Positions 1-51,943 of a DNA stretch of 64,000 nucleotides are shown in pieces (within the stretch, counting starts at the first letter, position 1; every line of letters begins with the position of its first letter). The stretch spans positions 32,001-96,000 of IMG/VR virus record IMGVR_UViG_2522572155_000001; one strand, 5' to 3'. This stretch comes from a virus. Its lineage: Duplodnaviria; Caudoviricetes. Under the pieces are notes generated by a model. It saw only the letters and a program-made list of their open reading frames with translations. It was not told the origin of the DNA and searched no databases. The position numbers were made by a program, and so were the translations under genes.

Positions 1-200
1 AACCAGTCGAGCAGTAGCTCGCCGTACTTCGGTCCCTCCACGTGGGCGACCGGGGCATCCGCGCCCCGGCCACTGCGCACGAACTCCAGCCGGAACCTGC
101 CGTTGCCCACCGAATAGCAGAGCAGGGGGCGGCCCTTGAACTCGCCACGGTACCCGCTCTCGTGACGCTTGAGGTACTTCAGGGGGAAGGTGTCGTCCAT
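1..200 (-). CDS. hypothetical protein, truncated by window start
   Basis: ATG at 200 abuts the ArdC stop; open frame MDDTFPLKYLKRHESGY... runs off the window. Confidence 0.6.
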   Translation of the reverse strand, partial: MDDTFPLKYLKRHESGYRGEFKGRPLLCYSVGNGRFRLEFVRSGRGADAPVAHVEGPKYGELLLDW

Positions 201-14100: not shown

Positions 14101-17100
14101 CTCAATCATCGAGCCGATGATCTTCTCGTAGTTCGGGTCCCCGATCTCTAGGTCGGGTCCCTCGACGCCATGCTCGTCGGCGTCGCCCTGCGCGATCCGG
14201 TAATCCTCGGGCTCGTTCTCGTACCACTGATCCTGCGCATACGGGTGCATATCCGGCAGATGGTGTTCGCGGCCACCCACGTAGCCGCCGTTGTACCCGA
14301 CCAACTGTGTGAGAGATTCGGGACCGTCCATGTGGTAGGTGTCATCCCACCACGGCTGGTAGGCAGCCGCCTCGGCGCCCTTCGTCCCGAGGTACTCGTT
14401 CATGCGGTCGTTGTACTCGTCGTCCACGTCCTGGTTGGAGCGACCCTTGTACTCCGTCGTCTCCGACCCGGGACCGACCCGGGCGCGGATCACGCCGCCG
14501 CAGTGATCGCACTGCTGGCCATGACCGTATCGACCGTAGTCATGTCCACAGTTGGCGCACTCGGCGTGATCCGGCGTCATCTGGAGCGTAGCGTGGGGAT
14601 GGTTCTTGCGGTCGCGAAGCGACAGGAAGACAGAACTGCCTAGCTCTGCATCATCGCCATAGCTCCCAACGCAATGGCCCATCATGTCGCCCTCGTCGCG
14701 CATCTCATGCCGGTTGTTCAACTGCCGCACGGTCCAGCCGTCAGGGAACTCGTGAACAACCTCACCGAGATCCTTGCGGGCCTTAGCCTCCTGGTCGGCG
14801 CGCCAGTCGGTAATGCGGGTCAGTAACTCCGGCGCACCCAACTGCATGATGTCGATGCCCTGACGGGCCTTCTTCATCTGATCGAGGTCGCGCTGAATCT
14901 CGGCCAGCGTCTGCGGGTTGAGCGGGGACTGCCCGGGACCGGGGACGCCAAGTCCTCCCACATCATTTGGGATCAGGCGTCCCTTACGCCACTCACGAAC
15001 GACCCAGGGGAGCAGCTTGTCGGCCTGGCGGTAGCCCTGTTCATCAAGGAAACGCAGGAACTCCTCACCCTCCGGCGTCTGCATGTCCGGGCGCGCGGCG
15101 AGCCAGTCGAACTTGGACGCGGTGCGCCCCATGTAGGTGTGTGCGCCCCACGGGCAGGTGCACGGCTGCCCGGTGGTGATGTGCGAGTGCGGGCGTCGCT
15201 TCACGCTCTTGTGAGGCGTTGCGCCCTGGCGGGGCGTCAAGCCCTCCGGCAGAACGCGCGGGTCAACCTCGCCCGGCACCGCGCCCATGTCCTCGAAGGG
15301 GTACTCACGGCCGGGCACAGGATCATCGCCGCCGACCATCTGGCGGTGTCCGCACCCAAGGCACAGGAGAGTTGGAACGCCGGTCTGTTCGAGGTACATC
15401 TGGTGCTCGCCGCATTCGGGGCATAGCAGCCACTCTTCGTCTACAGAGGCCCACTTAGAGGGCGTTACCGAGCCAGTCGTAGGTCCTAGAGGGTGCTCGG
15501 TTTCCGGAAGGGCGCGCAAGGCATCGCCCAGTGGCGCAATTAGCTGCTCGTGCATCTTCATGCGATCCCCAAAGGTGTAACCGGACGAGCAGCCGTTGCA
15601 CACGTAGCCGTTCATCTCAGGCACGATCGAGAGGTCGCTGCCGCACCTCGGGCACGGGGCACCGAACTGCATCAGGTAGGGCCTCTTGGGCGGGTTGACA
15701 GCAGATGTCTTAGAGGGCGTTACCTCGCCGTCCTGGTCGTCAACTAGGCGCAGGCGCTCAGGAGCGATGTGGGTGACATCGCTCTGCCAGGCGCCAGGGC
15801 GACCCCTGCCTGGCGCGGGGTCCCAGTAGTCCGCCGGAACCTGCTTGAACCACGGATCGCGCTTCAGCCTACCGACAGCGCGAGGATGAACCTCCCACAA
15901 GTCGTGCGGCTCGATGCCGTTACAAATCTCGGCGTAACGCCGCGCCTCTGGGAGGTTGTCCCAGAAGTGCATCGGGTTGCCCGTAACGGGGTTGGGGACC
16001 ATACCCTCAGCAAGCACCTGCTCGCGTATGGAGGAAGGCAGAAGCCTGTAGTACGGACGTACGCGCGCCGAGGCGACAGAGGACCGACGAGTCATCTTCT
16101 CCCAATGCTCGTACGTCGGGGCAAAGCGCAGACCGCCTCCAGCGAAGCGTCTCGCCTTCTCGATGGCATTCGGGTCAGGAGACCTACTGTCGCTCAGGGT
16201 GTACCACCCGCTCGGATGGATGACAATAGGACACTCGTAGTCCTGCGGCCAGGGGCAACGGGTCGCAGCTACATCGTCGTGGTGCGGGGCCAGCCCCGGA
16301 GCGCGGACGTTCCACATCACGGGCTCGTTGTTGACGAGGAAGCCCTTGCCCCACTCGCCGGGAGTCCAGTCCATGTGGAGCGGCGTCGAGGCCGTGCGCT
16401 CCTGGTCTACAGAAGATGCCTTAGCGGGCGCCGCCGGGATGTACGCCGGGAGATGCGTATCTCCGCGACGATGCGCGACGGTGGCACGATGCCAGCCATC
16501 GAGCAAGGTGCCCTCATGGTCGATGACCACTTCGGGCATCGGCCCAGGCATCTGCGCGAGGCTATTCACCCGGTCGGGCTCCACGTCCAGGGAGCCCACC
16601 CCGGCGATGCTCGCCAGCGGGTGTTGTGTGCGCGTCCAAGAGGGATGCTGGTGGATCTTGCGCTCCATGCGCTCCCACCAGATGTCGTTATCCACCCGAG
16701 AGCGTCCACGCGAGCCCTTGTGGAGGGCACGCATGTGCTCCATAACCTGCTCAGGTGAGATCACGGCCACAGACTCTACAGAACCGCCATTAGGGGGCGC
16801 TGACGCCATCCGGCTCCAGTCGCGAACCTTGTTCTTGAGCCACGGGTTATCCCAATGGAAGGCGTCAATCGGCTGGCCACCCGCACGAAGCTCCTCGGTG
16901 AGCCGGTTGAACAGACCCTTCCCACGGTGCTCAGGATGCGTGTACGCCGAGCCAAGCATGATGCCGCCTGGCACACCCTGCCAGGTCACGCTCGCGACCG
17001 GCTCGCCGTTGTAGTACGCGACGCGACCGTCGCCCTGGCCATGCTTCGTCGTCAGCGTGTCACCGCCACGGCTATCGAAGCGCGGGACGAAGGTCCCGGT

Positions 17101-18936: not shown

Positions 18937-21900
18937 ACATTCTGGCCGCGCTCAGCAGCGTTTCCGGGTTGTTGGCCGCCGGGTCTTCGAGCACGATGTC
19001 GGTGAGGTGACGTAGTACCTCGCCCATCTGCGGGCCGGGCGTGAAGCCAGCACGGATGAGGTCGTGCCCGTTGATCGCCAGATGGCTCGCGTTCGTGGGC
19101 TCGCCCGCTTCACGTACTCTGTTCACCAGTTCGCGCTGCTTATCCACGTTGAGCTTCGGATCGCTCGGGTATTCCAGCTTGCCGCCCTGGTCGGCCTGGC
19201 GCAGGAGGAGAAGGTCATCGGCGTTCTCGTCGCCCACCTTGTTGATGAACTTTCGCGCGCCGTTGGTGGAGTGGAAGGCAGGGAACATGTGATGGCGCAC
19301 GATGTGCGTCATGTAGCCGATGTCGTCGTTGGAGACGCGGAGGTCACGCAAGTCCTGCTCGAACTGGTCAGCCCCGAGCGGAGCGTGGTCGGCTCCCCAT
19401 ACAGTGCGGGATCCGTTCGGATTCTCCTGGCGCCACTCGTAGTAGTGACCCTCGCCGTCCTGCCCGCAGGTGGGGCACACCTTGCCGGGGATCGGGTTCT
19501 TCACGCGTAGGCCGGTGGCGTGGTCGGTCTGCGAGCACGGCTTGCACTCGAACCACTGCGAGTCCACCTTGCCGTTGTCGTGGTTCGCCGCCGCTAGCTG
19601 GAGTAGCGGGTGTGCCCCGAGTTGCTTGGCGTGACGGAGGACGAGCAGGTTGTGCTCTCCGAGGTCGCCCTCGGGGTGATGCGGGTTGTACTGCTCGAAG
19701 CCCATCGTGCGGGCGAGGCCGGGTAGGAAGTAGGGGAGAGTGCCTGTCTCGTGCGCGAGCCGCAGCGACCGCTCGGTGTACGGCGCGGGCTTGGGTTCCC
19801 GCGTTTCGGGGTCGAGCCCGAACATCTTGAAGAGTTCATTGCGCTTGCGATCGGCCGGGAGGTGCACGAGGCGATCGGCGTACATCGCCATCTGTGCCTT
19901 GGTCATCTCGTCGGGTTCGAGTCCGTGGCGCGCGTTGAGCGCGAGCGCGCGCATGATCCGCAGCGGGTCGTCCTCGAAGCTCTTGGTCGAGGTGGTCGAG
20001 AACGTGCCGTGCCGGATGGCGTCGGCGCCGCCGTAGGGGTCCACGAGCTTGCCGGTGTCGAGGTCGACGCCCATCGCGTTGACATTGAAGTCTCGCCGGG
20101 CGAAGTCTTCCTCGGGGGTCATCGTATGGTCGGCCTGCACGTCGAAGTCGGTGTGCTCGGGGCCGGTCGAGCGCTCGCGACGGGGGAGGGCGATCTCGAT
20201 GACCTCGCCGTCCTGGCGATAGCGGATGACGCTGAAGTCCTGGCCGTGCTGCATGACCTTACCGGGGAGCCTGCGCAGGGCGGCCAGCACCTGCTGATGC
20301 GGGAGCCCGGTGACCATCAGGTCCAAGTCCTTGGGGGCCTCGCCCATGACGGCGTCGCGGACCGCGCCGCCGACCACGTAGACGTGCCCGCCCTCCTGCT
20401 TGAGGGCCTGGTAGACGCGCCAGGCAAGGTCATCCTGGGCGACGAGGTTGGCGATGTGCTGGCCGATCTCCATGTTGGACGTGATCGGCCGTGCCGACAC
20501 GGGCTGGTATGCGGGATTGGGGGCGAACTTCCAGCCTCCGGGGCCGTCGTCGCTGATGCCGGTCATGACGTGCGTGCCGACGATCGCGTGCGGAGGGATA
20601 GTGCCCTGGTGTGCGAGCGAGTGATGCTGGTCGCTTTCGAGGATCACTTGCGTGAGTTCGGGATTGTCTCCCAGGCCAACTCCCTCCGCCCACCTGCCCT
20701 TGTTGTCGTACTCGCCGGTGTCCCACATCCCAGTAGGAGTGGCGTCCTCGTCGGGGTTGATGTTCTCCGGGTCGAGATAGCGCGGATCTACCTCAACTAC
20801 CGTGGCGTCATCTGACGCGGTCGTGGGAGCGATGTTCCACGCAAAGTCCTTGTCGTTAGTTAGGTACACGTGGCCCGGGCGCGGGGTCATCCTCGGGTCC
20901 CAGTTATGCTGACCTAGCTCATCCCACGGACGCAGACCCTGGCGGGTGATGTCAGCGGCACGACTGCTCGTCGTGCCATGGTAGAGCTTCTCCCACTTAG
21001 GCCAACCCTGGTAGCGAGACCGTGCTAGTTCCGGCTGCGTCTCGTCCTCCCAATAGCCTTCATCAACCGGGCGGGCGACGCGTGCCAGCTTCGTGTCGTT
21101 ACCTGCGTCGTCGCGCAGATGGACCGACTTGATGACGAATTCCGGGTGCTGGTAATACCAGAGTTCCAGCATGTGCCGAACCGTGTAGGGCATGTTGGTG
21201 AGCGAGCGGACGATTACCTTGCCGCCCGGCTCGTATGTGCCCTCAACGATGCCGCCCGGGGTGAACTTGCCCTGGATGTCGGAGTGGCGCTCGCCGGGGT
21301 GACCGACTGTCACGGAGTCCTCGTCCACGTCATAGATGAACGGTACGGCACCTTCAAGGAGCTTGGAGGGATCCTGGTCGGCCGACCAGCGGTAGATACG
21401 GTGCCCGGCATGGATGAAGCCCATCCGGGTGAGGACGTGGAACTCTTCAGTCGCCGCAAGCCGCTGCCCGTCCGGCGAGTACTCAGCGGCGAGGTGCATG
21501 TGGAGGTCCGTGTAGACTCGCTGAAGGCGCGAGAGGATCGCGTCAGTGACGTGGAATCCCACGGGTGAGGAAATCCAGGTGAGCAACGGGCCTTCGAGGG
21601 CAGCGCAGCCAACCGGCGATCCGTTCTCGTAGGCCGTGTAGTAGGTGCTCTCTGCGTGGCGGAAGTAGCGGTGATTGACACCGGGTACCTTGTCTGCCTC
21701 TGCATTGCTCGTGCGGAGGATGACGCCCTCGAAACGGGAGAAGTTCGCCCCCGGAGGACCGGGCGGGCCATCCGGGTAAGCCGAGCGGGGCATAGGGAAG
21801 TGGCGCAGGAAGTAGTCGCGCACGAAGTCGTGCGTGGCGGGCACCACCGCACTGACACCGCCGTTCAGGAAGATGAGACGGTCGCCGCCAGCAACGTTGA

Positions 21901-23530
21901 CCGAATCGAACCCATTCGCGGCCAACCAGTTAGCCGCCTCAGCCAAGTCACTCTGCACGTCCCCCTCAAAGGCGTGCGGATCAGCCTTGATCTCCTCAGG
22001 ACTCCACGCCTGCCCGAAGCCAACCTGTCCAACCGGCTGATCGCCACGGTAGACGTAGATGCCGAACCCGCGAGTGGCGAGATCAGCATCCCAGGGCCAC
22101 GGCCCGCGTCCATGAGCCGCAACGACGTTCGTCGGCTCGAAGCTCTGCTCGGAGAAGTTGGGCGGGAAGGTGGCGTCCTGGTCAGGAAGCTCGGGGAACT
22201 TGGACGGCTGCACCGTGGTGTCGGTCGTCCCCATCGGCTCCTCCTGCTCACGGTGACGAATGTAGAGGTCCCAGCGGGGGAAAATCTGGTCGCACTCGGG
22301 GCACTTGAAGACTCCACCGGGCGCGCGCTCGTCACGCTGCGGCTCGTTGAAGAACTGGCCGCCCTCGGGCTCGTTGTCGGTTGGGCTCCAGAGGTTGTCG
22401 GTCTGTAGGTCTTCGATGCGCTTGACGACGTTATCCCCGGCCATCAGGCGCAGACCGCTGTCTGTTGCCCACTCGCTCAGTGCGGTGAACAGGTACGGGC
22501 GATCCCGGAAGCGCGCCACCTTGGCGACAGCACCTTCGATGTGAATCGCGCCGGTTACGGCGGCCTCCCTGGGTCCCACGCCGTAGTCAGCTTCGATCGC
22601 CGTGGCGAGGTCCCATGCGGAGCGCGCGAGCAGCAGATGCTCTGTATCAGGTAGCCAGGCGTAGATCAGGCGGGATGACTTCTTCGGAGCGAAGTCATCG
22701 TTGATCGGCTGCCCGCTGGAGTCCACGAGCCCGCCCCACTCCCAGCCCACGTGCTTGTCGTAGTCCTTGAGCACCCGCTCCAGGGCGTGGAGAGCGATGT
22801 TCGACCGTAGCTGCCAGTTGGCGCTGCCCATATTGACCGTCACGAATCCGGCGGCGAACGGGCCGGTGTGGTCGACCGGGATCCCGGCCTGGCGAGCTAG
22901 CTCCTCGTGGGAGTCGTCGGCCGAGAGATGAAGGTTGCCATTGCCGTAGACGACGTTGTAGGTCTTCGGGCCGTCCGGGGCTCCGGGGGTGTCGTGGAGA
23001 TAGCGCTGGTTGTAGTTCTCGACCGCCTGCGCCTCCTCGCCGGGGTAGGCGTCTCCGAGGTCGAACGCGAGCTTGGCGTAGCGGCCCTCTAGCGCGCGAT
23101 CGGCGCGCGACATGAAGCGGACAGTGCGCGGCTCCGGATCGATGTCCGGGATGACCTCATGCCCGGCGAAGATAGGATGAGTAGTTCGCTTGTAGAGCAT
23201 CGGTGCCGTCCTCCACCGAAGGTGCTCCGGGTGAAGCCGCAGGCCGGGATCCTCTTCGTCCAGCCGGATGCCCTCGATAGACGGATCGGCAGGCGGTAGG
23301 ACGTGGCGATCACCGCAGATATCCAGAGCGTGCTTGCCGTCCGTCCAAAAGTAACAACCATCCTTGCGCCCGACGTGTCCCCCGAGCTTGCTCTGAAGCC
23401 AGCGTGAGGTGACGTAGCACTGGCCCACCGCAGGTACCGGGTGACCACGAAAGGCGTCAGGGCGCGTGTCATCAGACCACGCCTGCGTCGCGGCATTCTG
23501 GAGGGCATGGATTTGATCCTGGCTAAGCAT
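18926..23530 (-). CDS. giant multidomain protein: YunG-like N-terminus, ART/Tpt1-like domain, C-terminal CCA-adding enzyme with HD domain
   Basis: GQCYVTS; LYHGTT..GLRP..VYLT; [37 protein letters not shown]. Confidence 0.85.
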
Positions 23531-45839: not shown

Positions 45840-45874
45840 GTCTATCCGTTACGACTTAGGTCGCGCCCGAAAAG

Positions 45875-45947
45875 TGGCTCTAGCAGGAGTCGAACCTGCG
45901 GCCTCTCCCTTATGAGGGGATCGCTCTGGCCTCTGAGCTATAGAGCC
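45875..45947 (-). tRNA. tRNA-Met/Ile2 (CAT)
   Basis: cloverleaf, loop CTCATAA. Confidence 0.85.
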
Positions 45948-45953
45948 GGTGAG

Positions 45954-46025
45954 AGCCGCGTGCGGGACTCGAACCCGCGATGCCTGCTTGGAAGGCAGGA
46001 GTGTTGGCCACTACACCAACGCGGC
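45954..46025 (-). tRNA. tRNA-Gly (TCC)
   Basis: cloverleaf, loop CTTCCAA. Confidence 0.9.
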
Positions 46026-46136
46026 GTGCAGAGAAACGGTGCTCTGATGCACCAGTTTCGCCTCGCGAGATTCTTACCTCCCGCGCCCTTCGGAAGAGGT
46101 GAAGGTCACCATCCATCTACCCGAAAGGGAAACATC

Positions 46137-46379
46137 ATGTCTCAGGTTGTCAAGCTCGACAGTCGCACGTTCGTAGCTGTCCCACAGCTAGCAATCGGCG
46201 CCCATACCATCGACGGATACGTGTTCGGCGGGATGCCGTACTACAACCCGGCGCCGGACTCCATTAGCGCCGTCACGATTTGGTGGAAGCTACTCGCGGA
46301 CCCGAGCTACGCGTCGTTGCCGCCGGTCACGTCGATCAGCGTGGAGACCACGGTCTCCGGTACCGTCAACCCGGTCTAG
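46137..46379 (+). CDS. hypothetical protein, antisense to the tRNA array
   Basis: RBS AAAGGGA; MSQVVKLDS... 80 aa. Confidence 0.65.
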   Translation: MSQVVKLDSRTFVAVPQLAIGAHTIDGYVFGGMPYYNPAPDSISAVTIWWKLLADPSYASLPPVTSISVETTVSGTVNPV

Positions 46380-46579
46380 GAGAAGATCCGAGCGATCTGC
46401 TCGTGCGTCGCTCCCTGGGCGAGATAGCGACGCACGTCGTGGTGACTGAGGGCGAAGCCGTCCAAGCCCTTTGCATCCACGAGGCTCATCACCTGGTCGT
46501 CAACGAAGCCGAGCGAGCGAAACGTCTCGCTACGGTACGCCCTGATCTTGTCACCATTGAGGTCGGTGGTACCTGCCAT
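46376..46579 (-). CDS. hypothetical protein
   Basis: ORF track. Confidence 0.5.
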   Translation of the reverse strand: MAGTTDLNGDKIRAYRSETFRSLGFVDDQVMSLVDAKGLDGFALSHHDVRRYLAQGATHEQIARIFS

Positions 46580-46583
46580 TCTA

Positions 46584-46655
46584 AGCTCCCTATCAGAATC
46601 GAACTGATTTCCCGGGGTTACAAGGCCCGTGCATCTCCATCAATGCTTAGGGAGC
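46584..46655 (-). tRNA. tRNA-Thr (TGT)
   Basis: cloverleaf, loop CTTGTAA. Confidence 0.8.
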
Positions 46656-46665
46656 GGGACGAGCC

Positions 46666-47199
46666 CTACTTCCTCGGGCTCTTCTTGTGTCGATGCAAGC
46701 GAGAAGCATGCGCGTTGAGTCGCCTGCGGGCGAGCTTCGCCGGGCTTGCTGCGAAGTTCACGTGGTGAGCCTCGGAGGCCGTGTGATACGGCTGGTGCAC
46801 CTTGTAGCCGTAGCGATGGAGCACGCGGAGTAGGTCATCCCATTCCGTAACGTCGAGACCTAGCTGATAGGGCCGGAGCTTGTGCCCGACGTGGCCGATG
46901 GTGCCATCTCCGAGCAGCAGGTGGGAGCCCTGGGTCGGTGGGTTCGCGGGCAGGAACCCGGGCAGGCGCTTCGTCCATCCGTTGAACAGGTACGCCTGGT
47001 CGTGAAGCTTGGTCTTGTGCCTCTTGTTGAACGACTTGATCGTGGATACGCGACGATCTGCCGAGACAAGGTGTCCCTTCCAGCCGTTGTTACGCGCGTC
47101 CTGGAGTGCCCATGCGAGGCCCCGGTAGACGGGCACATTGTCGAACTTGACGATGTGCCACGCCGGGTAGACCGTGCTCAGAAGCGGTAGGCGGCTCAT
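46666..47199 (-). CDS. peptidase M15-like cell-wall hydrolase
   Basis: DQAYLF..ANPP..SH..GLDV..EAHHV. Confidence 0.6.
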   Translation of the reverse strand: MSRLPLLSTVYPAWHIVKFDNVPVYRGLAWALQDARNNGWKGHLVSADRRVSTIKSFNKRHKTKLHDQAYLFNGWTKRLPGFLPANPPTQGSHLLLGDGTIGHVGHKLRPYQLGLDVTEWDDLLRVLHRYGYKVHQPYHTASEAHHVNFAASPAKLARRRLNAHASRLHRHKKSPRK

Positions 47200-47234
47200 G
47201 CCGCTTACGTGAGAGGCTCAACGATGAAGTAAGG

Positions 47235-47512
47235 TCACGCCCTATAGCCAGGATTCTGTCGTGGTCGATCATCTACCTCTGTATCGCGTATCGATACGCG
47301 ATACAGGCCACACCTTTACGTGGTGGCTGCCCTCAACCTTGCTCACCCCTGGTTGCCCTCGGGTGGCTATTGCGAGGTTGCACCCTGCCTCCCCACTGAG
47401 GTTCGAACGGCCGTAAGCCTCCCTCCGGAGGATCAGTATCTGCGACGAGGTTTGCCCCCGCCAGGGTGTCCTGAACTTCCTCTGGCCGAGGCCAGCGATC
47501 GACTAGGCGTGA
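47235..47512 (-). ncRNA. rnpB: RNase P RNA (compact, ~278 nt)
   Basis: P1 TCACGCC/GGCGTGA; P2 GTCGATC/GATCGAC; P3 CTGGCC/GGCCAG; GAGGAAGTTCAGGA pairs ACAGAATCCTGGCT (P4 with bulged U); CACCCTGG/CCAGGGGTG; GAGCAAG. Confidence 0.85.
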
Positions 47513-47513
47513 G

Positions 47514-47586
47514 AGCCCACGCGGGGATTCGAGCCCCGGACCTCTCCCTTACGAGGGGAGCGCTCTACCTGCTGAGCTACGTGGGC
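47514..47586 (-). tRNA. tRNA-Thr (CGT)
   Basis: loop CTCGTAA; T-loop reads CTCGAAT. Confidence 0.88.
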
Positions 47587-47591
47587 GTGCA

Positions 47592-47664
47592 AGCCACCAC
47601 AGGGAGTCGAACCCTGGACCCCTGCCTTACCATGGCAGTGCTCTGTCCTCTGAGCTATGGCGGC
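47592..47664 (-). tRNA. tRNA-Thr (GGT)
   Basis: loop ATGGTAA. Confidence 0.9.
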
Positions 47665-47667
47665 GTA

Positions 47668-47739
47668 AGGGGTATGTGGGAATCGAACCCACCTTTGCGA
47701 CATGGCAAGCCACCGTAATAGCCGATATACGAATACCCC
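47668..47739 (-). tRNA. tRNA-Gly (GCC)
   Basis: loop TTGCCAT. Confidence 0.85.
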
Positions 47740-47752
47740 TTGTCTACTGCTA

Positions 47753-47823
47753 GCGCCCCAACGAGGAATCGAACCTCGCATCTCGGATTCGAAGTCCAAG
47801 CGCCAGACACACTGGCAAGGGCG
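47753..47823 (-). tRNA. tRNA-Arg (TCG), irregular acceptor stem
   Basis: loop CTTCGAA, good T- and D-arms. Confidence 0.65.
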
Positions 47824-47827
47824 GAAG

Positions 47828-47900
47828 TGCCCCCTACTGGATTCGAACCAGTGACCTCGGCCGTCGCAGGGCCGCGCTCTATCCACTGAGCTAAGAGGGC
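47828..47900 (-). tRNA. tRNA-Arg (GCG)
   Basis: CGGCC-CTGCGAC-GGCCG. Confidence 0.9.
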
Positions 47901-47902
47901 AG

Positions 47903-47936
47903 AGGGTGGGGTCACACACCGCTAGGACCCCACCCT
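47903..47936. other. hairpin between HNH gene and tRNA
   Basis: AGGGTGGGGTC...GACCCCACCCT, 11-bp stem. Confidence 0.6.
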
Positions 47937-47937
47937 G

Positions 47938-48534
47938 CTACTGATCGAACCGGCCTTCGAGCCAGTCCTTTACGAGGCGAGCCTCGTATACCTGGTCATC
48001 GCCTTCCGCGAGCAATTCGATGATCTTCGGGTGCTCGCGACGAAGCTGTTCCAGGAGGCGACGGGCGTTCGCCCGTTCCTCCTGCGTGAGGTACCCCACG
48101 ATCGAGACGGTGTTATCTCTGTCGTGGAGGTCACGGTGGCAGTCGATGCACACAGGGATTGTGCACCGTGACCGGGCGGCGACCTGTACGTAGTTGGATA
48201 GCTCCCGCATCATCCAACGGTTGACGTAGTGGTGCCTCGTGGAGTCCCCAGGACGGCCGCAGCAGCGACATTCAGGCTGAACCTGTCTCAGCGCTCTGTA
48301 GGCGTTCCTGCGCTCTACGATCTCGGCCGGGGGAGTACCCTGGTCTAGGGCATCACGCAGAGCCTCCACGATTTGCCCTTGCGTCGGGTGCGTATCGAGC
48401 AAGTCGTCAAGCTCGATCCCCGTCACCGTGGTGAGGAGTTCAAGCTGCTCGTGCGTTGCCTTGCGGCCATTGGCCGAAGCGTCGTACCACCAGGTGTCCC
48501 CGGTGGGGAGAGTGATGGGACGGGCGCGTGACAT
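47938..48534 (-). CDS. HNH-like endonuclease within tRNA array
   Basis: CRCCG..TRHH..VCIDCHRDLH. Confidence 0.7.
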   Translation of the reverse strand: MSRARPITLPTGDTWWYDASANGRKATHEQLELLTTVTGIELDDLLDTHPTQGQIVEALRDALDQGTPPAEIVERRNAYRALRQVQPECRCCGRPGDSTRHHYVNRWMMRELSNYVQVAARSRCTIPVCIDCHRDLHDRDNTVSIVGYLTQEERANARRLLEQLRREHPKIIELLAEGDDQVYEARLVKDWLEGRFDQ

Positions 48535-48551
48535 TGTTCCTCACTGGTTAG

Positions 48552-48624
48552 TGCCGCGTACGGGAATCGAACCCGTGTTACCTACGTGAGAGGCAGGCGT
48601 CCTGGTCCACTAGACGAACGCGGC
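48552..48624 (-). tRNA. tRNA-Glu (CTC)
   Basis: loop CTCTCAC. Confidence 0.9.
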
Positions 48625-48631
48625 AGGTGGA

Positions 48632-48707
48632 GGGCGACCAGCGGGATTCGAACCCGTCGCTGCTGGAGTCACAGTCCAGAGTGCTAACCGCTGACACTAT
48701 GGCCGCC
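48632..48707 (-). tRNA. tRNA-His (GTG)
   Basis: loop CTGTGAC, G-1:C73. Confidence 0.9.
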
Positions 48708-48713
48708 ATGAAG

Positions 48714-48784
48714 CTGGGGAGCAAGGATTTGAACCTCAACTAACGGGGCCAAAACCCGTCGTGCTGCCGTTACACCACTCCCCA
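48714..48784 (-). tRNA. tRNA-Gln (TTG)
   Basis: loop TTTTGGC. Confidence 0.9.
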
Positions 48785-48798
48785 GTGGTTACTGCTGA

Positions 48799-48872
48799 TA
48801 GCGGGAGGAGGATTTGAACCTCCGACCTCCAGGTTATGAGCCTAGCGAGCTACCTGACTGCTCCATCCCGCA
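48799..48872 (-). tRNA. initiator-like tRNA-Met (CAT)
   Basis: fMet-like body, 1:72 mismatch, loop CTCATAA. Confidence 0.88.
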
Positions 48873-48887
48873 TGGGTGAACTGCAAG

Positions 48888-48962
48888 TACCCTCGCTCGG
48901 ATTCGAACCGAGACATGAACGGTGTTTGAAACCGCTACCTCTGCCAATTGGGCTACGAGGGC
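48888..48962 (-). tRNA. tRNA-Leu (CAA), short variable arm
   Basis: loop TTCAAAC. Confidence 0.88.
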
Positions 48963-48963
48963 A

Positions 48964-49035
48964 TAGGGCGACGGAGAATCGAACTCCGGCTACGGGGGTG
49001 AAAACCCAGCGGTCTGACCACTAACCTACCGCCCC
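48964..49035 (-). tRNA. tRNA-Glu (TTC)
   Basis: loop TTTTCAC. Confidence 0.85.
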
Positions 49036-49047
49036 AGGTACTTCGAG

Positions 49048-49122
49048 TGCACCCACGAGGATTTGAACCTCGGACCTCCGCCTTATCAGAGCGGCGCTCT
49101 AACCAAACTGAGCTATGAGTGC
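49048..49122 (-). tRNA. tRNA-Ile (GAT)
   Basis: loop CTGATAA. Confidence 0.9.
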
Positions 49123-49126
49123 AGAG

Positions 49127-49198
49127 TGGAACGCCCCGGAATCGAACCGGGTACACCGCGAGTTTCAGCCGCGTGCTCTACCGATGAGCTAGCGCTCC
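49127..49198 (-). tRNA. tRNA-Phe (GAA)
   Basis: loop CTGAAAC. Confidence 0.9.
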
Positions 49199-49201
49199 AG
49201 G

Positions 49202-49294
49202 TCAGGCCACGAGGCAAAGGGGGAGCCTCGTCTGAGCGGCGTCATGGGACATCCCGGACCGCCGCTAGCGTCTCGCGATCCCCTCGTGACCTGA
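49202..49294 (-). ncRNA. unassigned structured RNA
   Basis: 13-bp closing stem, inner AGCGGCG/CGCCGCT; fills the spacer between two tRNAs. Confidence 0.55.
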
Positions 49295-49296
49295 AG

Positions 49297-49369
49297 TGGA
49301 GCCTAAGGGGTTCGAACCCTTCACCTCCTGCTTGCAAGGCAGGCGCTCTCCCAACTGAGCTAAGGCCCC
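49297..49369 (-). tRNA. tRNA-Ala (TGC)
   Basis: loop CTTGCAA, G3:U70. Confidence 0.92.
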
Positions 49370-49530
49370 ATGTCGTCGCCAAACGATTCCCACTTGGCGA
49401 TTGCACCATCTTCGAGATAGACGCGCCACCAGCGCATCCTCACGATCCTTCCGTGCGTATCCCATTCGACCCACACGTGGAACTGAATTCGGTCGTACGT
49501 GGGATGGTCGATGACCACCATCTGCTCCAT
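49360..49530 (-). CDS. small hypothetical protein (56 aa) whose stop lies inside tRNA-Ala
   Basis: MEQMVVIDHPTYDRIQFHVWVEWD... Confidence 0.4.
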   Translation of the reverse strand: MEQMVVIDHPTYDRIQFHVWVEWDTHGRIVRMRWWRVYLEDGAIAKWESFGDDMGP

Positions 49531-49547
49531 GCACAAACGTAGTCGGA

Positions 49548-49634
49548 CGGAGAGAGGGAGATTCGAACTCCCGAGACACTTTCGTGTCTACCGTCTTTCC
49601 AGGACGGGCCGTTCAGCCACTCCGGCACCTCTCC
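49548..49634 (-). tRNA. tRNA-Ser (GGA)
   Basis: long variable arm, loop CTGGAAA. Confidence 0.92.
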
Positions 49635-49637
49635 AAG

Positions 49638-49721
49638 CGGAAGCAGAGGGAATCGAACCCCCGACGCTGTCACACGCAGCCGGGTTCAAACCGGTGTCCT
49701 CGTCCATGCCGGACTACTTCC
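49638..49721 (-). tRNA. tRNA-Ser (TGA)
   Basis: loop TTTGAAC, atypical D-arm. Confidence 0.8.
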
Positions 49722-49724
49722 GTA

Positions 49725-49796
49725 AGGCGGGGAGGGGAATCGAACCCCTGTAACGCGCTTTGCAGGCGCGCACATAAGCCACTCTGTCACCCCGCC
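49725..49796 (-). tRNA. tRNA-Cys (GCA)
   Basis: loop CTGCAAA, U73. Confidence 0.92.
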
Positions 49797-49852
49797 GGGT
49801 GTGGACAAGCAGCAGTTTAGCAGTAGCGAATGCCCTGCACGCTACAGATAAG

Positions 49853-49924
49853 CTGGCCCGGGAGGATTCGAACCCCCGACATCCCGAGTAACAGTCGGGC
49901 GTTCTGCCACTGAACTACGGGCCA
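49853..49924 (-). tRNA. tRNA-Asn (GTT)
   Basis: loop CTGTTAC. Confidence 0.9.
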
Positions 49925-49943
49925 GTAGTTAGGTGCTGGTAGG

Positions 49944-50017
49944 TGGACCGTCCGGGATTCGAACCCGGATAGCAAGGGTAAGAGCCAAGTATGTTATCCA
50001 GTTGACATCAACGGTCC
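49944..50017 (-). tRNA. tRNA-Lys (CTT)
   Basis: loop CTCTTAC; two U-U mismatches in anticodon stem. Confidence 0.75.
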
Positions 50018-50021
50018 GATA

Positions 50022-50109
50022 CGGAAGGAGAGGGAGTCGAACCCTCGGTACCCGGTTAGGGCACACTCGCTTAGCAGGCGAGCCTATTCGGCCTCTCTAG
50101 CATCCTTCC
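50022..50109 (-). tRNA. tRNA-Ser (GCT)
   Basis: long arm, loop CTGCTAA. Confidence 0.9.
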
Positions 50110-50111
50110 AG

Positions 50112-50183
50112 TGCCCCCGAGAGGACTCGAACCTCCAGCCTAACCCTTAGGAGGGGTTCGCTCTTCCGTTGAGCTACAGGGGC
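50112..50183 (-). tRNA. tRNA-Arg (CCT)
   Basis: loop CTCCTAA. Confidence 0.9.
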
Positions 50184-50191
50184 GAAGATTG

Positions 50192-50322
50192 CCCACCAAG
50201 GCTTGTCCGCTTGCCTGTCCTCCGTGCGGAGGAGATCGGTCCTGACCGCAGACATGTATCCGATCTTTCAGTCTGCGGGTAGGCGGTTTCGCCTGGCTCG
50301 TAACCGATCCAGGTCGGGTGGG
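50192..50322 (-). ncRNA. unassigned multi-stem RNA
   Basis: CCCACC/GGTGGG, GATCGGT/ACCGATC, AGGCG/CGCCT, CCGCAGAC/GTCTGCGG, TCCTCCG/CGGAGGA. Confidence 0.6.
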
Positions 50323-50328
50323 ACTTAG

Positions 50329-50709
50329 TGGAGGCGCCGGGAGTCGAACCCGGGTGTTCCGTGCGCGTATCTCGCCAGTCTTTCAGCAGCTTAGGCCGTA
50401 GGTGGCCATCCACAATCTAAGGACACAGGCTAGCTGTGTCTCCACCACCTGCTCGATACGGTCGAGCAGGAAACCGGCCCTCCGTTTAGGAGGGCGTCAC
50501 CCGGAGTTCTGGTCCTAGGCCCCGGGAGCCCGCGCCGTAGGTTACGCTACGGCTAGAAGTGCTTCCAGTTCGTCCTCGACGGTCATAGTGACCTCGGACG
50601 GCATGGAAGCGATGATGTTCTCGCCAGTTATGGCTTGTGGCAGGTAGGTGTGCCGACCGCTGCACTGCTCGGGACTGCATCTCACGGAGTCGAAGCCATG
50701 TTCGCCCCC
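50329..50709 (-). ncRNA. ssrA: tmRNA
   Basis: 5' GGGGGCGAACATGGCTTCGAC; 3' CCCGGGTTCGACTCCCGGCGCCTCCA; G3:U; tag ORF 50542-50625. Confidence 0.92.
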
Positions 50710-50713
50710 AGGA

Positions 50714-50778
50714 GGTTCGCCACTCCGACCACCCTTCGCGGGTGGACCCGGAGCGCTCGAAGTCTCCGGCTGCGAACC
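50714..50778 (-). ncRNA. small three-way-junction RNA
   Basis: GGTTCGC/GCGAACC, CCGGAG/CTCCGG, CCACCC/GGGTGG. Confidence 0.45.
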
Positions 50779-50779
50779 A

Positions 50780-50852
50780 TGTACCCCACAGGGCTCGAAC
50801 CTGTGACCTCGTGCCTGTCAAGCACGTGCTCTCCCAACTGAGCTAGGGGTAC
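50780..50852 (-). tRNA. tRNA-Val (GAC)
   Basis: loop TTGACAG. Confidence 0.9.
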
Positions 50853-50855
50853 GGA

Positions 50856-50928
50856 TGCGCGGTGACGGACTCGAACCGCCGACCTACCGGGTGTAAACCG
50901 GTCGCTCTCCCAACTGAGCTAACCGCGC
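50856..50928 (-). tRNA. tRNA-Val (TAC)
   Basis: loop TTTACAC. Confidence 0.92.
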
Positions 50929-50937
50929 GAGGTATAG

Positions 50938-51009
50938 CAGGGGATACAGGACTCGAACCCGTAGCCTCGGTTTTGGAGACCGAGATGTTCGCCTTTACAC
51001 CAATCCCCT
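50938..51009 (-). tRNA. tRNA-Trp (CCA)
   Basis: loop CTCCAAA. Confidence 0.9.
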
Positions 51010-51014
51010 GGGAG

Positions 51015-51088
51015 CGGTAGTGACGGGGCTCGAACCCGCGACCTCTGCCGTGACAGGGCAGCGCTCTAACCAACTGAGCTACACCACC
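51015..51088 (-). tRNA. tRNA-Asp (GTC)
   Basis: loop CTGTCAC, G73. Confidence 0.92.
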
Positions 51089-51099
51089 AGGTACTTCTA

Positions 51100-51174
51100 T
51101 CAGGATGAGAGGATTCGAACCTCCGACTTCTCGCTCCCGAAGCGAGCGCTCTGGCCAGACTGAGCTACACCCTG
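51100..51174 (-). tRNA. tRNA-Pro (CGG)
   Basis: loop TTCGGGA. Confidence 0.92.
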
Positions 51175-51186
51175 TTACCGCGTAAG

Positions 51187-51268
51187 TACACCCGGAGAGA
51201 TTCGAACTCTCAATCCCGAAGGCACTGGTTCCTAAGACCAGCGTGTATGCCAGTTCCACCACGGGTGC
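51187..51268 (-). tRNA. tRNA-Leu (TAG)
   Basis: loop CTTAGGA, long arm. Confidence 0.9.
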
Positions 51269-51271
51269 ATA

Positions 51272-51337
51272 AGCGACGAGGCCGAGGGAGGGAAGGGACC
51301 TGGAGGTGCAAACCATGAACCAGGGGGCCTCGTCGCT
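51272..51337 (-). ncRNA. unassigned hairpin RNA with C/U-rich internal loop
   Basis: AGCGACGAGGCC/GGCCTCGTCGCT perfect 12-bp stem; loop TCCCTTCCCTCCCTC. Confidence 0.55.
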
Positions 51338-51339
51338 AG

Positions 51340-51420
51340 CGCGCCCTCAAGGAATCGAACCTCGCCAGCAATTGCAACCGGGTTACAGCCGGTCGGGAAC
51401 TCCAGTTCCCCATAGAGCGC
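51340..51420 (-). tRNA. atypical tRNA with GTA (Tyr) anticodon
   Basis: loop CTGTAAC; 6-bp D-stem with 4-nt loop. Confidence 0.75.
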
Positions 51421-51425
51421 GAATG

Positions 51426-51530
51426 ACGCAGGCTCACTGATTCGGGCGCGACCACGGAGCAACTAGACCCCAGCTAGGCTTGGGGGCCATGCGGTATTTC
51501 ACCGCTGCACTCAGGAGGATTACCCTGCGT
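51426..51530 (-). ncRNA. unassigned structured RNA
   Basis: ACGCAGG/CCTGCGT closing stem; GCGGT-GAAAT-ACCGC; GGCCCC/GGGGTC. Confidence 0.5.
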
Positions 51531-51566
51531 TGAGACGTTGATATGTACCGGTGTCTCAGACCGGAG

Positions 51567-51638
51567 TGTCCTCCAAGGGACTCGAACCCTTGACGATGCC
51601 CTTAGAAGGGGCGCGCTCTGCCGCTGAGCTAGGAGGAC
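51567..51638 (-). tRNA. tRNA-Arg (TCT), first tRNA of the array
   Basis: loop CTTCTAA. Confidence 0.9.
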
Positions 51639-51689
51639 GACTTGCATGAGAACGTCATCGGCCGGGGCCGGGCGAACTCCTATGTCGAG

Positions 51690-51721
51690 AGAAAGAAAAG
51701 GCCCGCTCGAATGGCGGGCCT
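51690..51721 (-). terminator. intrinsic terminator (attenuator) in the tRNA-array leader
   Basis: AGGCCCGC-CATTCGA-GCGGGCCT-TTTCTTTCT. Confidence 0.85.
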
Positions 51722-51752
51722 CCTGTACGCGCGATGTGCGGGTAGCAGGAGG

Positions 51753-51812
51753 CTACGACAGGGTCTGACCCTTCGGATCGCGACGCGAGTTATGTCTAAT
51801 GAAGTAGGCCAT
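51753..51812 (-). CDS. putative leader peptide MAYFIRHNSRRDPKGQTLS
   Basis: ATG after purine-rich AAGGGGTACAGAGAAG; stop codon overlaps the antiterminator arm. Confidence 0.7.
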   Translation of the reverse strand: MAYFIRHNSRRDPKGQTLS

Positions 51813-51914
51813 TGCTTCTCTGTACCCCTTACCCCAGGCGTGTGGGGCGGTTTCCAGTGCCGCCAGCCTAAAGATTGTCTAAAGGCTGGCGGCGTGGAAG
51901 GGCGACGACGGAGA

Positions 51915-51943
51915 ACTATAGCCCGGGGCCTACCGTTCGTCAA
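51915..51943 (-). promoter_or_regulatory. sigma-A-type promoter of the tRNA array
   Basis: TTGACG-N17-TATAGT. Confidence 0.85.

Follow-up and report, generated by a model that had tools for sequence, protein, structure and literature searches.

Arrays of tRNA genes with a tmRNA are already known in the Bixzunavirus (cluster C) mycobacteriophages, among them HyRo (NC_028869), and were assigned to group G4 by Morgado and Vicente in 2018 (PMC5966550). These arrays hold about 26-35 co-oriented tRNA genes and, in addition, a single tmRNA whose tag is long and acidic. Replacement of a nuclease-depleted tRNA pool is a published idea for cluster C1 mycobacteriophages (van den Berg et al. 2023, PMC10264068), and phage tRNAs were also presented as counter-defence by Azam et al. 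2024 (PMC11555353); RNase P RNA is involved in neither study. Extra RNase P RNA homologues were found in Mycobacterium austroafricanum and M. sp. YC-RL4 by Behra et al. 2022 (PMC9569102). These rnpB-like copies, which have conserved catalytic residues and an altered specificity domain, lie beside an endonuclease gene and were judged to be horizontally acquired, and the same mycobacterial genome carries an additional phage-type tmRNA (PMC9569102). Neither a phage origin nor membership of a tRNA array was ascribed to them (PMC9569102).

In this study, we analyzed a tRNA array in a 64,000-nt stretch of viral DNA (the window). We consider it very likely that the array, together with the mechanism that we propose for it, is a translation-support module of an integrated phage. 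What we observed, and what this explanation builds on, is the set of genes, the order in which they lie, and how the RNAs fold and are conserved. The novel part of the array is an RNase P RNA; our literature search found no published description of an RNase P RNA gene in a virus.

An integrated phage related to cluster C

The array lies on one strand between a ribonucleotide reductase (RNR) gene and the lysis/terminase genes of a prophage roughly 164 kb long that is integrated in the host chromosome. The origin in a phage, as first proposed, is borne out by terminase, portal, endolysin and RNR genes, by an integrase-like ORF at the right edge of the island, and by the contrast in GC content (62-66% in the island, 72.5% in the genome). 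The large terminase is 32-34% identical to those of phage E3 and the cluster C phages, and we regard the phage as distantly related to the Bixzunavirus (cluster C) and Rhodococcus E3 actinophages. HyRo, likewise a large actinophage (terminase 32% identical), shares the order endolysin, lysin B-like gene, terminase, and its array also contains an HNH gene and a lysin-type gene. The two differ in that the present array is just upstream of the lysis/terminase genes, in a phage that is integrated in the chromosome. HyRo also has a peptidyl-tRNA hydrolase gene within its array, where we saw none in ours, and our searches of HyRo detected no RNase P RNA.

Genes and spacers of the array

ARAGORN called 32 tRNAs and one tmRNA at 45874-51638, all on the minus strand, in line with the count and the shared orientation given in the first-pass annotation, and Rfam confirmed 31 of these tRNAs. 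The array runs as follows, with the tRNA genes identified by both programs apart from the degenerate one.

51566-51638, minus: tRNA-Arg(UCU), first gene of the array
51421-51565, minus: spacer, 145 nt, no significant fold (z = -0.56)
51339-51420, minus: tRNA-Tyr(GUA), class II
51269-51338, minus: spacer, 70 nt, hairpin with 12-bp closing stem and C/U-rich unpaired stretch (z = -4.6)
50780-51268, minus: six tRNAs, Leu(UAG), Pro(CGG), Asp(GUC), Trp(CCA), Val(UAC), Val(GAC)
50328-50709, minus: phage-type tmRNA (ARAGORN; Rfam 49 bits, gathering score 47)
50184-50327, minus: structured spacer, 144 nt, from tmRNA to tRNA-Arg(CCU) (z = -3.2)
49545-50183, minus: seven tRNAs, Arg(CCU), Ser(GCU), Lys(CUU), Asn, Cys, Ser(UGA), Ser(GGA)
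49370-49544, minus: spacer, 175 nt, neither significant fold nor family
49296-49369, minus: tRNA-Ala(UGC)
49199-49295, minus: structured spacer, 97 nt, 13-bp closing stem (z = -3.2)
48551-49198, minus: eight tRNAs, Phe, Ile(GAU), Glu(UUC), Leu(CAA), Met, Gln(UUG), His(GUG), Glu(CUC)
47938-48534, minus: HNH-endonuclease-like ORF, 198 aa (weak phrog_8048 match; Atlas 0.96 to viral HNH clusters)
47827-47900, minus: tRNA-Arg(GCG)
47753-47826, minus: degenerate tRNA-Arg(UCG) (cloverleaf with 6-bp D-stem, 5-nt loop)
47513-47740, minus: three tRNAs, Gly(GCC), Thr(GGU), Thr(CGU)
47229-47514, minus: compact RNase P RNA, 286 nt (RF00010, 40.2 bits, E 2.3e-11, model 1-367)
46666-47199, minus: peptidase M15B/VanY-like ORF (cell-wall hydrolase type), 177 aa (Atlas score 0.93)
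46584-46655, minus: tRNA-Thr(UGU)
46376-46579, minus: 67-aa ORF, conserved in relatives L006, L009 and L010
46026-46375, minus: non-coding stretch, 350 nt, missing from the closest relative
45874-46025, minus: last two tRNAs, Gly(UCC), Met(CAU)

All 20 amino acids are represented, as claimed at first sight, by 31 canonical genes; the 32nd is the degenerate tRNA-Arg(UCG). ARAGORN had called this gene as a 91-nt 'His' tRNA (47753-47843), which we rejected in favor of the shorter gene with its shortened D-arm; relatives carry a normal tRNA-Arg(UCG) at this position. The call for tRNA-Lys(CUU) is borderline (29.4 bits). In the block of eight, tRNA-Leu(CAA) has a short variable arm in place of a long one, and tRNA-Met has an initiator-like U1:U72 mismatch. 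The anticodon of tRNA-Arg(GCG) is absent from the host tRNAs. CCA is encoded by none of the tRNA genes of the array.

The tmRNA, also expected from the first reading, has a G3:U70 acceptor pair, no encoded CCA and the resume codon GGC after AUAACU, and encodes the long, acidic tag GENIIASMPSEVTMTVEDELEALLAVA. In relative R1, the tmRNA resumes at an identical site and its tag frame is open, but the tag itself has diverged. The tag of the HyRo tmRNA is of a similar kind, also long and acidic.

The genes are closely packed. Nineteen of the 32 junctions are 17 nt or shorter, several of them 0-5 nt. With three protein-coding ORFs inside it (47938-48534, 46666-47199 and 46376-46579), the array differs from the RNA operon first described. 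Homologues of the HNH-like ORF also lie inside arrays (82% identity in L006, 63% in L009, 45% in L112 and 41% in L111), and L112 has an M15-like homologue about 200 nt downstream of its RNase P RNA. The proposed 'orphan RNAs' are structured spacers that belong to no known family. No Rfam family was found for the spacers at 51269-51338 and 50184-50327, and the latter gave no blastn match to the 88-nt spacer of R1. The spacer at 49199-49295 is partly conserved, with an overlapping blastn match 74% identical to R1, which retains the closing stem. A weak terminator-like hairpin (46054-46037) lies within the 350-nt non-coding stretch.

A compact RNase P RNA within the array

The RNA at 47229-47514, immediately 3' of a tRNA gene, is an RNase P RNA homologue, as the first-pass annotation had proposed, and we confirmed this assignment by homologues and covariation. 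Window-wide and 9-kb Rfam scans and a search of its own genome missed it, and the match to RF00010 was obtained when the scan was limited to 341 nt, with a score of 40 bits against a gathering score of 100. Its helices P1, P2, P3, P4 (which keeps the bulged U), P5 and P15 (which carries the GGU motif), its palindromic hairpin resembling P18, and its CR-I, CR-IV and CR-V are all shared, in the canonical order, with the type A RNase P RNA of bacteria (M1 RNA of E. coli, rnpB). In place of the type A specificity domain (P7-P14, including CR-II and CR-III), the phage RNAs have about 74-130 nt (about 74 nt here), in which a GNRA-type hairpin, GGAGGGAG and a T-loop-like motif (CGUUYGAACC) occur. CR-I reads GAGGAAGUUC in the phage and GAGGAAAGUCC in type A, with compensating changes in P4.

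Homologues occur in three syntenic relatives and six further viral contigs, and five of them match the Rfam model over its full length, at 19-54 bits. In these nine diverged phage and metagenome sequences, P1-P5 and P15 are maintained through compensatory changes, and the specificity-domain motifs are absent from all. P1, P2 and P3 stand at the expected places in nine distinct sequences whose letters are unrelated. For helices P4, P5 and P15 and the GNRA-type hairpin, the share of paired cells is 95.6%, compared with 33-54% when the partners are slid. Two-sided changes occur in ten pairs, compared with one to four in the slid controls, and in 500 shuffles the observed pairing and covariation values were never reached. 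The invariant residues are the catalytic ones, in CR-I, CR-IV, CR-V, the bulged U of P4, the A of J5/15 and the GGU of L15. Five viral contigs counted as carriers have 25-44 tRNAs each, and the homologues are kept across phages with unrelated terminases. In type A RNase P, the L15 GGU pairs with the 3' CCA of the precursor; the phage precursors are without 3' CCA, yet the GGU is retained. The loss of CR-II and CR-III means that activity on tRNA is not guaranteed, and the HyRo array indicates that a phage tRNA array can work without this element. As they are described, the copies of Behra et al. (PMC9569102) resemble the phage RNA in their conserved catalytic residues and altered specificity domain.

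Proposed mechanism and competing explanations

We infer that the array is transcribed and processed, that its RNase P RNA is an active ribozyme, and that the phage benefits. At least some of the transcription of the array would start at the sigma-70-like promoter (51943-51915) and would run through, or past, a leader with a terminator at its end. The polycistronic precursor would be cut by RNase P at every tRNA 5' end, and because spacers are 0-17 nt, each cut would nearly finish the 3' end of the upstream tRNA. The 3' ends would be trimmed, and CCA added, by host enzymes and a phage module:

18947-20386, minus: tRNA nucleotidyltransferase (CCA-adding) module (PF01743 82.6 bits, PF12627, PF13735; phrog_2244 E 6e-62)

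The CCA enzyme listed at first reading is thus encoded, but only as the C-terminal residues 1049-1528 of a 1,534-aa ORF (18926-23530) about 25 kb from the array; the coding signal is unbroken along this ORF. No RNA gene encodes CCA, and so maturation is genuinely needed at both the 5' and the 3' end. The phage RNase P RNA has retained a complete catalytic domain and the regions that bind the protein subunit in bacterial RNase P, and has lost the domain that reads the tRNA elbow. RnpA, the RNase P protein, is encoded by the host only, and we found no phage rnpA; the phage RNA would pair with host RnpA and add or secure 5'-processing capacity for the phage's own precursor load. The tRNAs would keep phage mRNAs, with their higher content of A/U-ending codons, in translation, and may also do so under host tRNA depletion, while the tmRNA with SmpB, likewise encoded by the host only, would free stalled ribosomes.

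That codon supply alone accounts for the array, with tRNAs offsetting the codon usage of a GC-rich host and the tmRNA and RNase P RNA as accessory passengers, is possible and somewhat doubtful. The phage has 63% GC and the host 72.5%, and the phage uses A/U-ending codons 2-16 times more often than the host; CUA, AUU, GUA, ACA and ACU, for example, are 6-16 times commoner among phage synonyms. Ten U34 tRNAs read A-ending codons. The set also includes tRNAs for codons that the host uses heavily (GGC, GAC, AAG and CGC), however, and in a low-power test the phage/host bias did not differ between covered and uncovered codons (p = 0.47). Selection on the RNase P RNA and tmRNA in many diverged phages also argues against mere passengers.

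The first-pass annotation interpreted the array as a self-contained, inducible unit that makes up for a host tRNA pool lost to defense nucleases. In full, this reading has an attenuator turn the unit on when charged tRNAs are scarce, and the nucleases would be anticodon nucleases. We consider this unlikely as a whole, and codon supply explains the data equally well. The set covers all 20 amino acids, not just rare codons, and the same role was proposed for broad phage tRNA sets in mycobacteriophages of cluster C1, with anticodon-loop changes proposed to block VapC-type cleavage (PMC10264068), and phage tRNAs have been shown to defeat retron and other tRNA-targeting defenses (PMC11555353). The tRNAs of our phage are 55-88% identical to the host isoacceptors, and about half differ from them in the anticodon loop, often by an A38-to-C38 change; these differences are compatible with such a replacement. 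'Self-contained' is an overstatement. The set reads 51 of the 61 sense codons, or about 87% of phage codon usage, leaving GCC/GCU, CUC/CUU/UUA, CCC/CCU/CCA, AAA and AUA unread, of which GCC, CUC and CCC are frequent; SmpB and RnpA come from the host, and three protein genes interrupt the array. The stretch before the first tRNA contains the following:

51915-51943, minus: candidate sigma-70-like promoter, TTGACG-17 nt-TATAGT, 28 nt past the RNR gene stop
51855-51893, minus: 11-bp hairpin, predicted 5' end of the leader transcript
51753-51812, minus: putative 19-codon leader ORF, MAYFIRHNSRRDPKGQTLS, weak Shine-Dalgarno match
51696-51724, minus: intrinsic-terminator-like hairpin, core GGCCCGC/GCGGGCC then U-run, 57 nt before the first tRNA

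Promoters of this quality number only three on both strands of the 166-kb island, and the fold of 51790-51910 has z = -3.9. Promoter, ORF and terminator do follow one another in this order, and pairing is possible between GCCUCCUG, located at the stop of the ORF, and CAGGAGGC beside the terminator stem. But the alternative helix overlaps the terminator core by only 2-3 nt and coexists with the terminator in the minimum-free-energy fold, the ribosome-binding site of the ORF is weak, and no relative covers the leader. The rare promoter and the terminator-like hairpin are present, with a putative regulatory role for either. Since a strong terminator separates the only good promoter from the first tRNA, this promoter may serve a separate short transcript. 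Overall, the initial observation largely holds and is partly confirmed, and its interpretation is partly supported.

It is very unlikely that the RNase P-like RNA acts as a decoy by titrating host RnpA and so disturbing host tRNA maturation, or is a decaying relic, as the missing specificity domain, the low Rfam score, the lack of a phage rnpA and the HyRo array without such an element might suggest, because eight or more helices are kept by compensatory change across phages with unrelated terminases, the invariant residues are catalytic ones that a pure protein decoy would not need, and activity is known for RNase P RNAs, both natural and engineered, that have little or none of the specificity domain (Pyrobaculum type T, Mycoplasma fermentans, Micro-P). 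Rfam scans of the array region and of the 341-nt piece gave no match to type T (RF02357). The phage RNA resembles the type T and M. fermentans RNAs, natural RNAs that have kept the catalytic domain and lost most or all of the specificity domain; these, however, are encoded by essential cellular genes present as single copies in archaea or Mollicutes.

An RNase P RNA in a phage tRNA array

What is new in this array is a compact RNase P RNA in a phage; the array itself and its tmRNA belong to an already known kind. RNase P RNA is generally taken to be a ribozyme universal to cells, and literature searches turned up no account of one encoded by a phage or another virus. The first-pass annotation had placed this RNA at 47235-47512, and a full-length RF00010 match at nearly the same place (model positions 1-367; 40.2 bits, E 2.3e-11; Infernal, 341 nt scanned) bears it out. 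A window-wide Rfam scan, a 9-kb Rfam scan and an RF00010 search of its own genome had all missed the gene. Because the 341-nt scan relaxes Infernal's filters and yields the match, these default-scan negatives are a filter artefact. Neither this score nor those of the homologues (19-54 bits) reaches the RF00010 gathering score of 100 bits.

RNase P RNAs of the phage and of its host bacterium (G000, the assembly holding the window; C3, one of its contigs)
47229-47514, minus strand: phage RNase P RNA, 286 nt
47279-47306: perfect 28-nt palindrome, CUGUAUCGCGUAUCGAUACGCGAUACAG, the P18-like hairpin of the phage RNA
G000:C3:274685-275007, minus strand: the host's own RNase P RNA, short (~323 nt), with a full specificity domain

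The alignment contains P1, P2, a short P3, CR-I (GAGGAAGUUC), P5, J5/15 CAA and P15, and further a P18-like hairpin, J18/2 AGAUGA and CR-V (ACAGAAUCCUGGCU); the catalytic-domain helices P1, P2, P3, P5, P15 (L15 GGU) and P18 are present in canonical order. The long-range helix P4 pairs CR-I (GAGGAAAGUCC) with CR-V (ACAGAAcCCGGCU) over 8 bp with a bulged U, and across seven sequences all of its cells are paired (100%) and four of its pairs have changed on both sides. Absent is the specificity domain P7-P14 with CR-II and CR-III, model positions ~74-215 being deleted in all alignments. Between the P5 strands lie only 84-139 nt, in which the motifs GGG(G/C)AAAC, GGAGGGAG and CGUUYGAACC are conserved and the host-type motifs GGAAAGUGCCACAGAAAAG and GGCAAACCCC are missing. 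The host's own RNase P RNA, in contrast, has the CR-II and CR-III motifs. That RNA appears to lack P18 and is not picked up by the phage-type profile at E ≤0.01. The genome holds one copy of the phage-type RNA, and RnpA is encoded by the host only, at G000:C2:264872-265198. The P18-like stem is kept with different letters in the related contig L006.

Homologous elements were found by nhmmer at the same array position in three relatives (contigs L006, 3e-20; L010, 6e-14; L009, 8e-11), the one in L010 carrying the canonical GAGGAAAGUC. Scanning IMG/VR for the CR-I motif and then applying nhmmer added six further viral contigs, five of which give full-length Rfam RNase P matches (19-54 bits) and carry 25-44 tRNAs each. 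Two of these five carriers are complete genomes, one of 160,765 bp with terminal repeats and one of 139,911 bp. The terminase of the 160.8-kb phage is 55% identical to that of the window and the other four carriers have no terminase match, so the RNase P RNA spans more than one phage lineage. In nine distinct sequences whose letters are unrelated, P1 (6-16 bp), P2 (7-9 bp) and P3 lie where expected. An independent prediction by RNAalifold recovers P4 including the bulged U, together with P5, a GNRA-type hairpin and P15. The structure is conserved by covariation, counted over the 23 RNAalifold pairs.

Covariation of the phage RNase P RNA, with partners slid by 1-3 columns and 500 shuffles as controls
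Cells paired: observed 95.6%; slid partners 33-54%
Pairs changed on both sides: observed 10; slid partners 1-4
Shuffles reaching the observed values: 0/500

The compact RNase P RNA is a real and conserved variant of a known ribozyme, lacking annotation so far and found in a carrier where it was not expected. We see an even chance that the 286-nt RNA is also an active virus-encoded ribozyme with minimised substrate recognition. Such a ribozyme would process the closely packed, CCA-less pre-tRNAs and the pre-tmRNA of the phage, with host RnpA or alone, making phage tRNA maturation independent of host rnpB, and would represent a phage-wide family invisible to standard annotation.

RF00010 and nhmmer detected no RNase P RNA in HyRo (NC_028869), a Bixzunavirus among the cluster C mycobacteriophages whose array includes a tmRNA. 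Against 50,697 phage records (megablast, blastn), the RNase P RNA, the tmRNA and the whole array gave only short tRNA matches or noise, and no cultured phage matched the RNase P RNA. Three contigs (L007, L098 and L111) have no significant RF00010 match; L111 has an nhmmer match to the phage RNA with a large insertion inside. Among genome contigs, the motif scan returned 67 matches, close to the ~35 estimated by chance for the database size, and nhmmer gave matches confined to the motif, with no compact RNase P RNA of full length. Four MAG contigs of Chloroflexota and Dehalococcoidia (L144, L195, L171 and L167) likewise contain the variant CR-I motif GAGGAAGUUC between P2/P3-like flanks. These sites are probably those genomes' own RNase P RNAs, and they might hint at the source of the phage CR-I variant. 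Two Mycobacterium genomes have been described with extra RNase P RNA homologues that have altered specificity domains and lie beside an endonuclease gene, with no phage assignment (PMC9569102).

A conserved phage copy without a specificity domain would amount to a natural experiment on the minimum RNA for tRNA 5' processing, and it would lengthen the list of virus-carried translation functions past tRNAs, tmRNA and CCA-adding enzymes. As the filters and the 100-bit threshold cause default Rfam/Infernal pipelines to miss the gene, tRNA-rich phages deserve rescanning at laxer settings. The location of this copy in a prophage of a sequenced bacterial genome ties it to a host with known RnpA, SmpB and tRNAs, which allows induction and biochemical experiments to be planned.

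The tRNA array, its tmRNA and its leader

At 45874-51638 ARAGORN called 32 tRNAs and a single tmRNA, every one of them on the minus strand. The 32 tRNAs claimed at first reading stand for the 31 that both ARAGORN and Rfam recover. The 32nd call, a 91-nt 'tRNA-His' overlapping tRNA-Arg(GCG), was rejected as a mis-call: 74 nt at 47753-47826 fold otherwise, into a cloverleaf whose anticodon is UCG and whose D-arm is shortened, at a place where three relatives carry a normal tRNA-Arg(UCG). The set is complete for all 20 amino acids and the genes are tightly packed (19 junctions of ≤17 nt, several of 0-5 nt), both as first noted; Arg(CCU) and Ser(GCU), for example, adjoin with a 0-nt spacer. The 3' CCA is missing from every tRNA gene and from the tmRNA gene. 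Tran et al. (2016, PMC4758250) define a tRNA array unit as at least 20 tRNA genes at a density of at least 2 per kb; here 31-32 genes lie in 5.77 kb, or ~5.5 per kb. For cluster C phages and mycobacterial genomes, tRNA arrays that also include a tmRNA, an HNH gene and genes of lysin type are on record (PMC5966550).

RNA genes are not the sole content of the array: it also encloses three ORFs whose coding bias is clear.

Proteins and spacers within the array
47938-48534, minus strand: HNH-like protein, 198 aa, found too in the arrays of four relatives, with 41-82% identity (L006 3403-3999; L009 2894-3490; L112 5710-6312; L111 13088-13687)
Inside the array, minus strand: M15B/VanY-like peptidase, 177 aa
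Inside the array, minus strand: 67-aa protein with no assigned function
51269-51338: spacer folding above shuffled controls, z = -4.6
50184-50327: spacer folding above shuffled controls, z = -3.2
49199-49295: spacer folding above shuffled controls, z = -3.2, partly conserved in the nearest relative
46026-46375, minus strand: 350 nt of non-coding sequence that the closest relative lacks, separating the 67-aa ORF from tRNA-Gly(UCC)

The HNH-like ORF stays within the tRNA array across phages whose terminases are only ~55% identical. Since it is kept in the arrays of diverged phages, it may, unlike a sporadic homing endonuclease, have a role connected with the array. The 177-aa ORF was considered as a dedicated protein partner of the RNase P RNA and rejected, because it resembles an M15 cell-wall peptidase and is absent beside the RNA in most homologues. 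Lax-filter Rfam scans of the array spacers, the three with significant folds among them, matched no known family; the 350-nt insertion contains a weak terminator-like hairpin and likewise has no Rfam match.

The tmRNA is also present as first reported, by an ARAGORN call and by RF00023 at 49 bits against a gathering score of 47. Its acceptor stem (GGGGGCG/CGCCUCC) includes G3:U70, the pair recognised by alanyl-tRNA synthetase, and it has a T-arm and a tag ORF with resume codon and stop. The tag starts at the GGC following AUAACU and reads GENIIASMPSEVTMTVEDELEALLAVA. In R1, the closest relative (a 26-kb IMG/VR contig with an 87% identical terminase), a tmRNA of 47.3 bits lies at the same place with an identical resume context, and its tag frame is open and diverged, reading GTYDPVAEAEAILAEAASRDLALA. 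The HyRo tag is long and acidic, comparable to that of the window. SmpB is encoded on the host chromosome only (C3) and not in the phage.

The strong promoter proposed upstream of the array corresponds to a sigma-70-like candidate, TTGACG-17-TATAGT at 51943-51915, which is the sole consensus-grade site near the array and one of three such sites in 332 kb (the island, both strands). A site in the correct orientation at this place would be unlikely by chance (estimate ~0.003). Transcription from it would start near 51908. Downstream come an 11-bp hairpin, a 19-codon ORF with a weak ribosome-binding site and, at 51696-51724, a strong terminator-like hairpin that leaves 57 nt to the first tRNA. 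A helix between GCCUCCUG and CAGGAGGC could compete with the base of this terminator, overlapping only 2-3 nt of its core, and the match to Rfam Trp_leader has E = 1.1. None of the relatives extends over the leader. This arrangement makes a trp/his-type attenuator possible; the leader unit could equally be a separate short transcript.

Codon coverage and the function of the array

By standard wobble, the phage tRNAs read 51 of the 61 sense codons, which make up 87% of phage codon usage; GCC, GCU, CUC, CUU, UUA, CCC, CCU, CCA, AAA and AUA have no phage tRNA. With ten codons unread, the module is unable to replace the host tRNA pool alone. The array had been called a self-contained and inducible replacement for that pool; given this coverage and the host-only SmpB and RnpA, 'self-contained' is not borne out, and 'inducible replacement' is not supported by the evidence.

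Two putative functions fit the sequences. Codons ending in A or U are 2-16 times commoner in phage genes than in host genes, an enrichment that fits codon supply. Identity of the phage tRNAs to their host isoacceptors is 55-88%. Roughly half have a different anticodon loop, in many cases with C38 in place of A38; these differences fit the nuclease-evasion hypothesis published for cluster C1 phage tRNAs (PMC10264068; see also PMC11555353). Position 38 is C in nine of the phage tRNAs (Phe, Leu-CAA, Ser-UGA, Asn, Lys, Tyr, Val-UAC, Arg-GCG and His). Eight of them have a host isoacceptor, with A at this position in seven and U in His. tRNA-Arg(GCG) has no host counterpart, the host using ACG.

The phage island and its predicted CCA-adding module

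The window corresponds to G000:C5:255233-319232 of a 6.64-Mb assembly of 72.5% GC and is enclosed by an island of ~164 kb and 62-66% GC (C5, roughly 215-379 kb), with a tyrosine-integrase-like ORF at its right edge (C5:378303-378857). The large terminase in the window shares 32-34% identity with its counterparts in Rhodococcus phage E3 and cluster C mycobacteriophages. Portal, endolysin and class II ribonucleotide reductase genes are also present, and HyRo and the window share the order endolysin, esterase-like gene, terminase. Our reading is that the element is a large, integrated prophage of actinophage-like type. Comparison of the island edges revealed no att repeat above 15 bp, and a terminase search of genome contigs gave no relative. 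A search for sequencing runs, of RNA or of DNA, returned none. A ribonucleotide reductase-based search of viral contigs gave 80 loci at ≤61% identity, with small tRNA groups in only two. In length the island is similar to the complete relative of 160.8 kb, which has terminal repeats.

Protein-coding features of the window outside the array
11191-23530, minus strand: two adjacent giant ORFs, of 2581 aa (with a PcfJ-like domain) and 1534 aa
18926-23530: the 1534-aa ORF, with a tRNA nucleotidyltransferase module at residues 1049-1528
200-1300, minus strand: ArdC-like anti-restriction N-terminal domain fused to a zincin MPTase-PolyVal metallopeptidase (Pfam E 4.5e-25 and 1.4e-33)

The CCA enzyme expected at first reading was found as this module, within the only ORF of the phage with a PolyA_pol match. 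All of its domains score over the cut-off (PF01743, 82.6 bits; PF12627, 25 bits; PF13735, 34 bits), and it matches phrog_2244 at E 6e-62. With PolyA_pol head, RNA-binding and tRNA_NucTran2_2 domains, the set for a class II tRNA nucleotidyltransferase is complete, and CCA-adding specificity is predicted. The module is part of a fusion, as the coding signal runs unbroken through the entire ORF; translation might also start internally, at codon 1020. The ~1020 aa before the module have no assigned function, and GC3 rises from ~0.8 to 0.93 in the CCA part. Both giant ORFs resemble the 'polyvalent' proteins of phages and conjugative elements, and if their products were packaged and injected, CCA-adding activity would enter along with the DNA.
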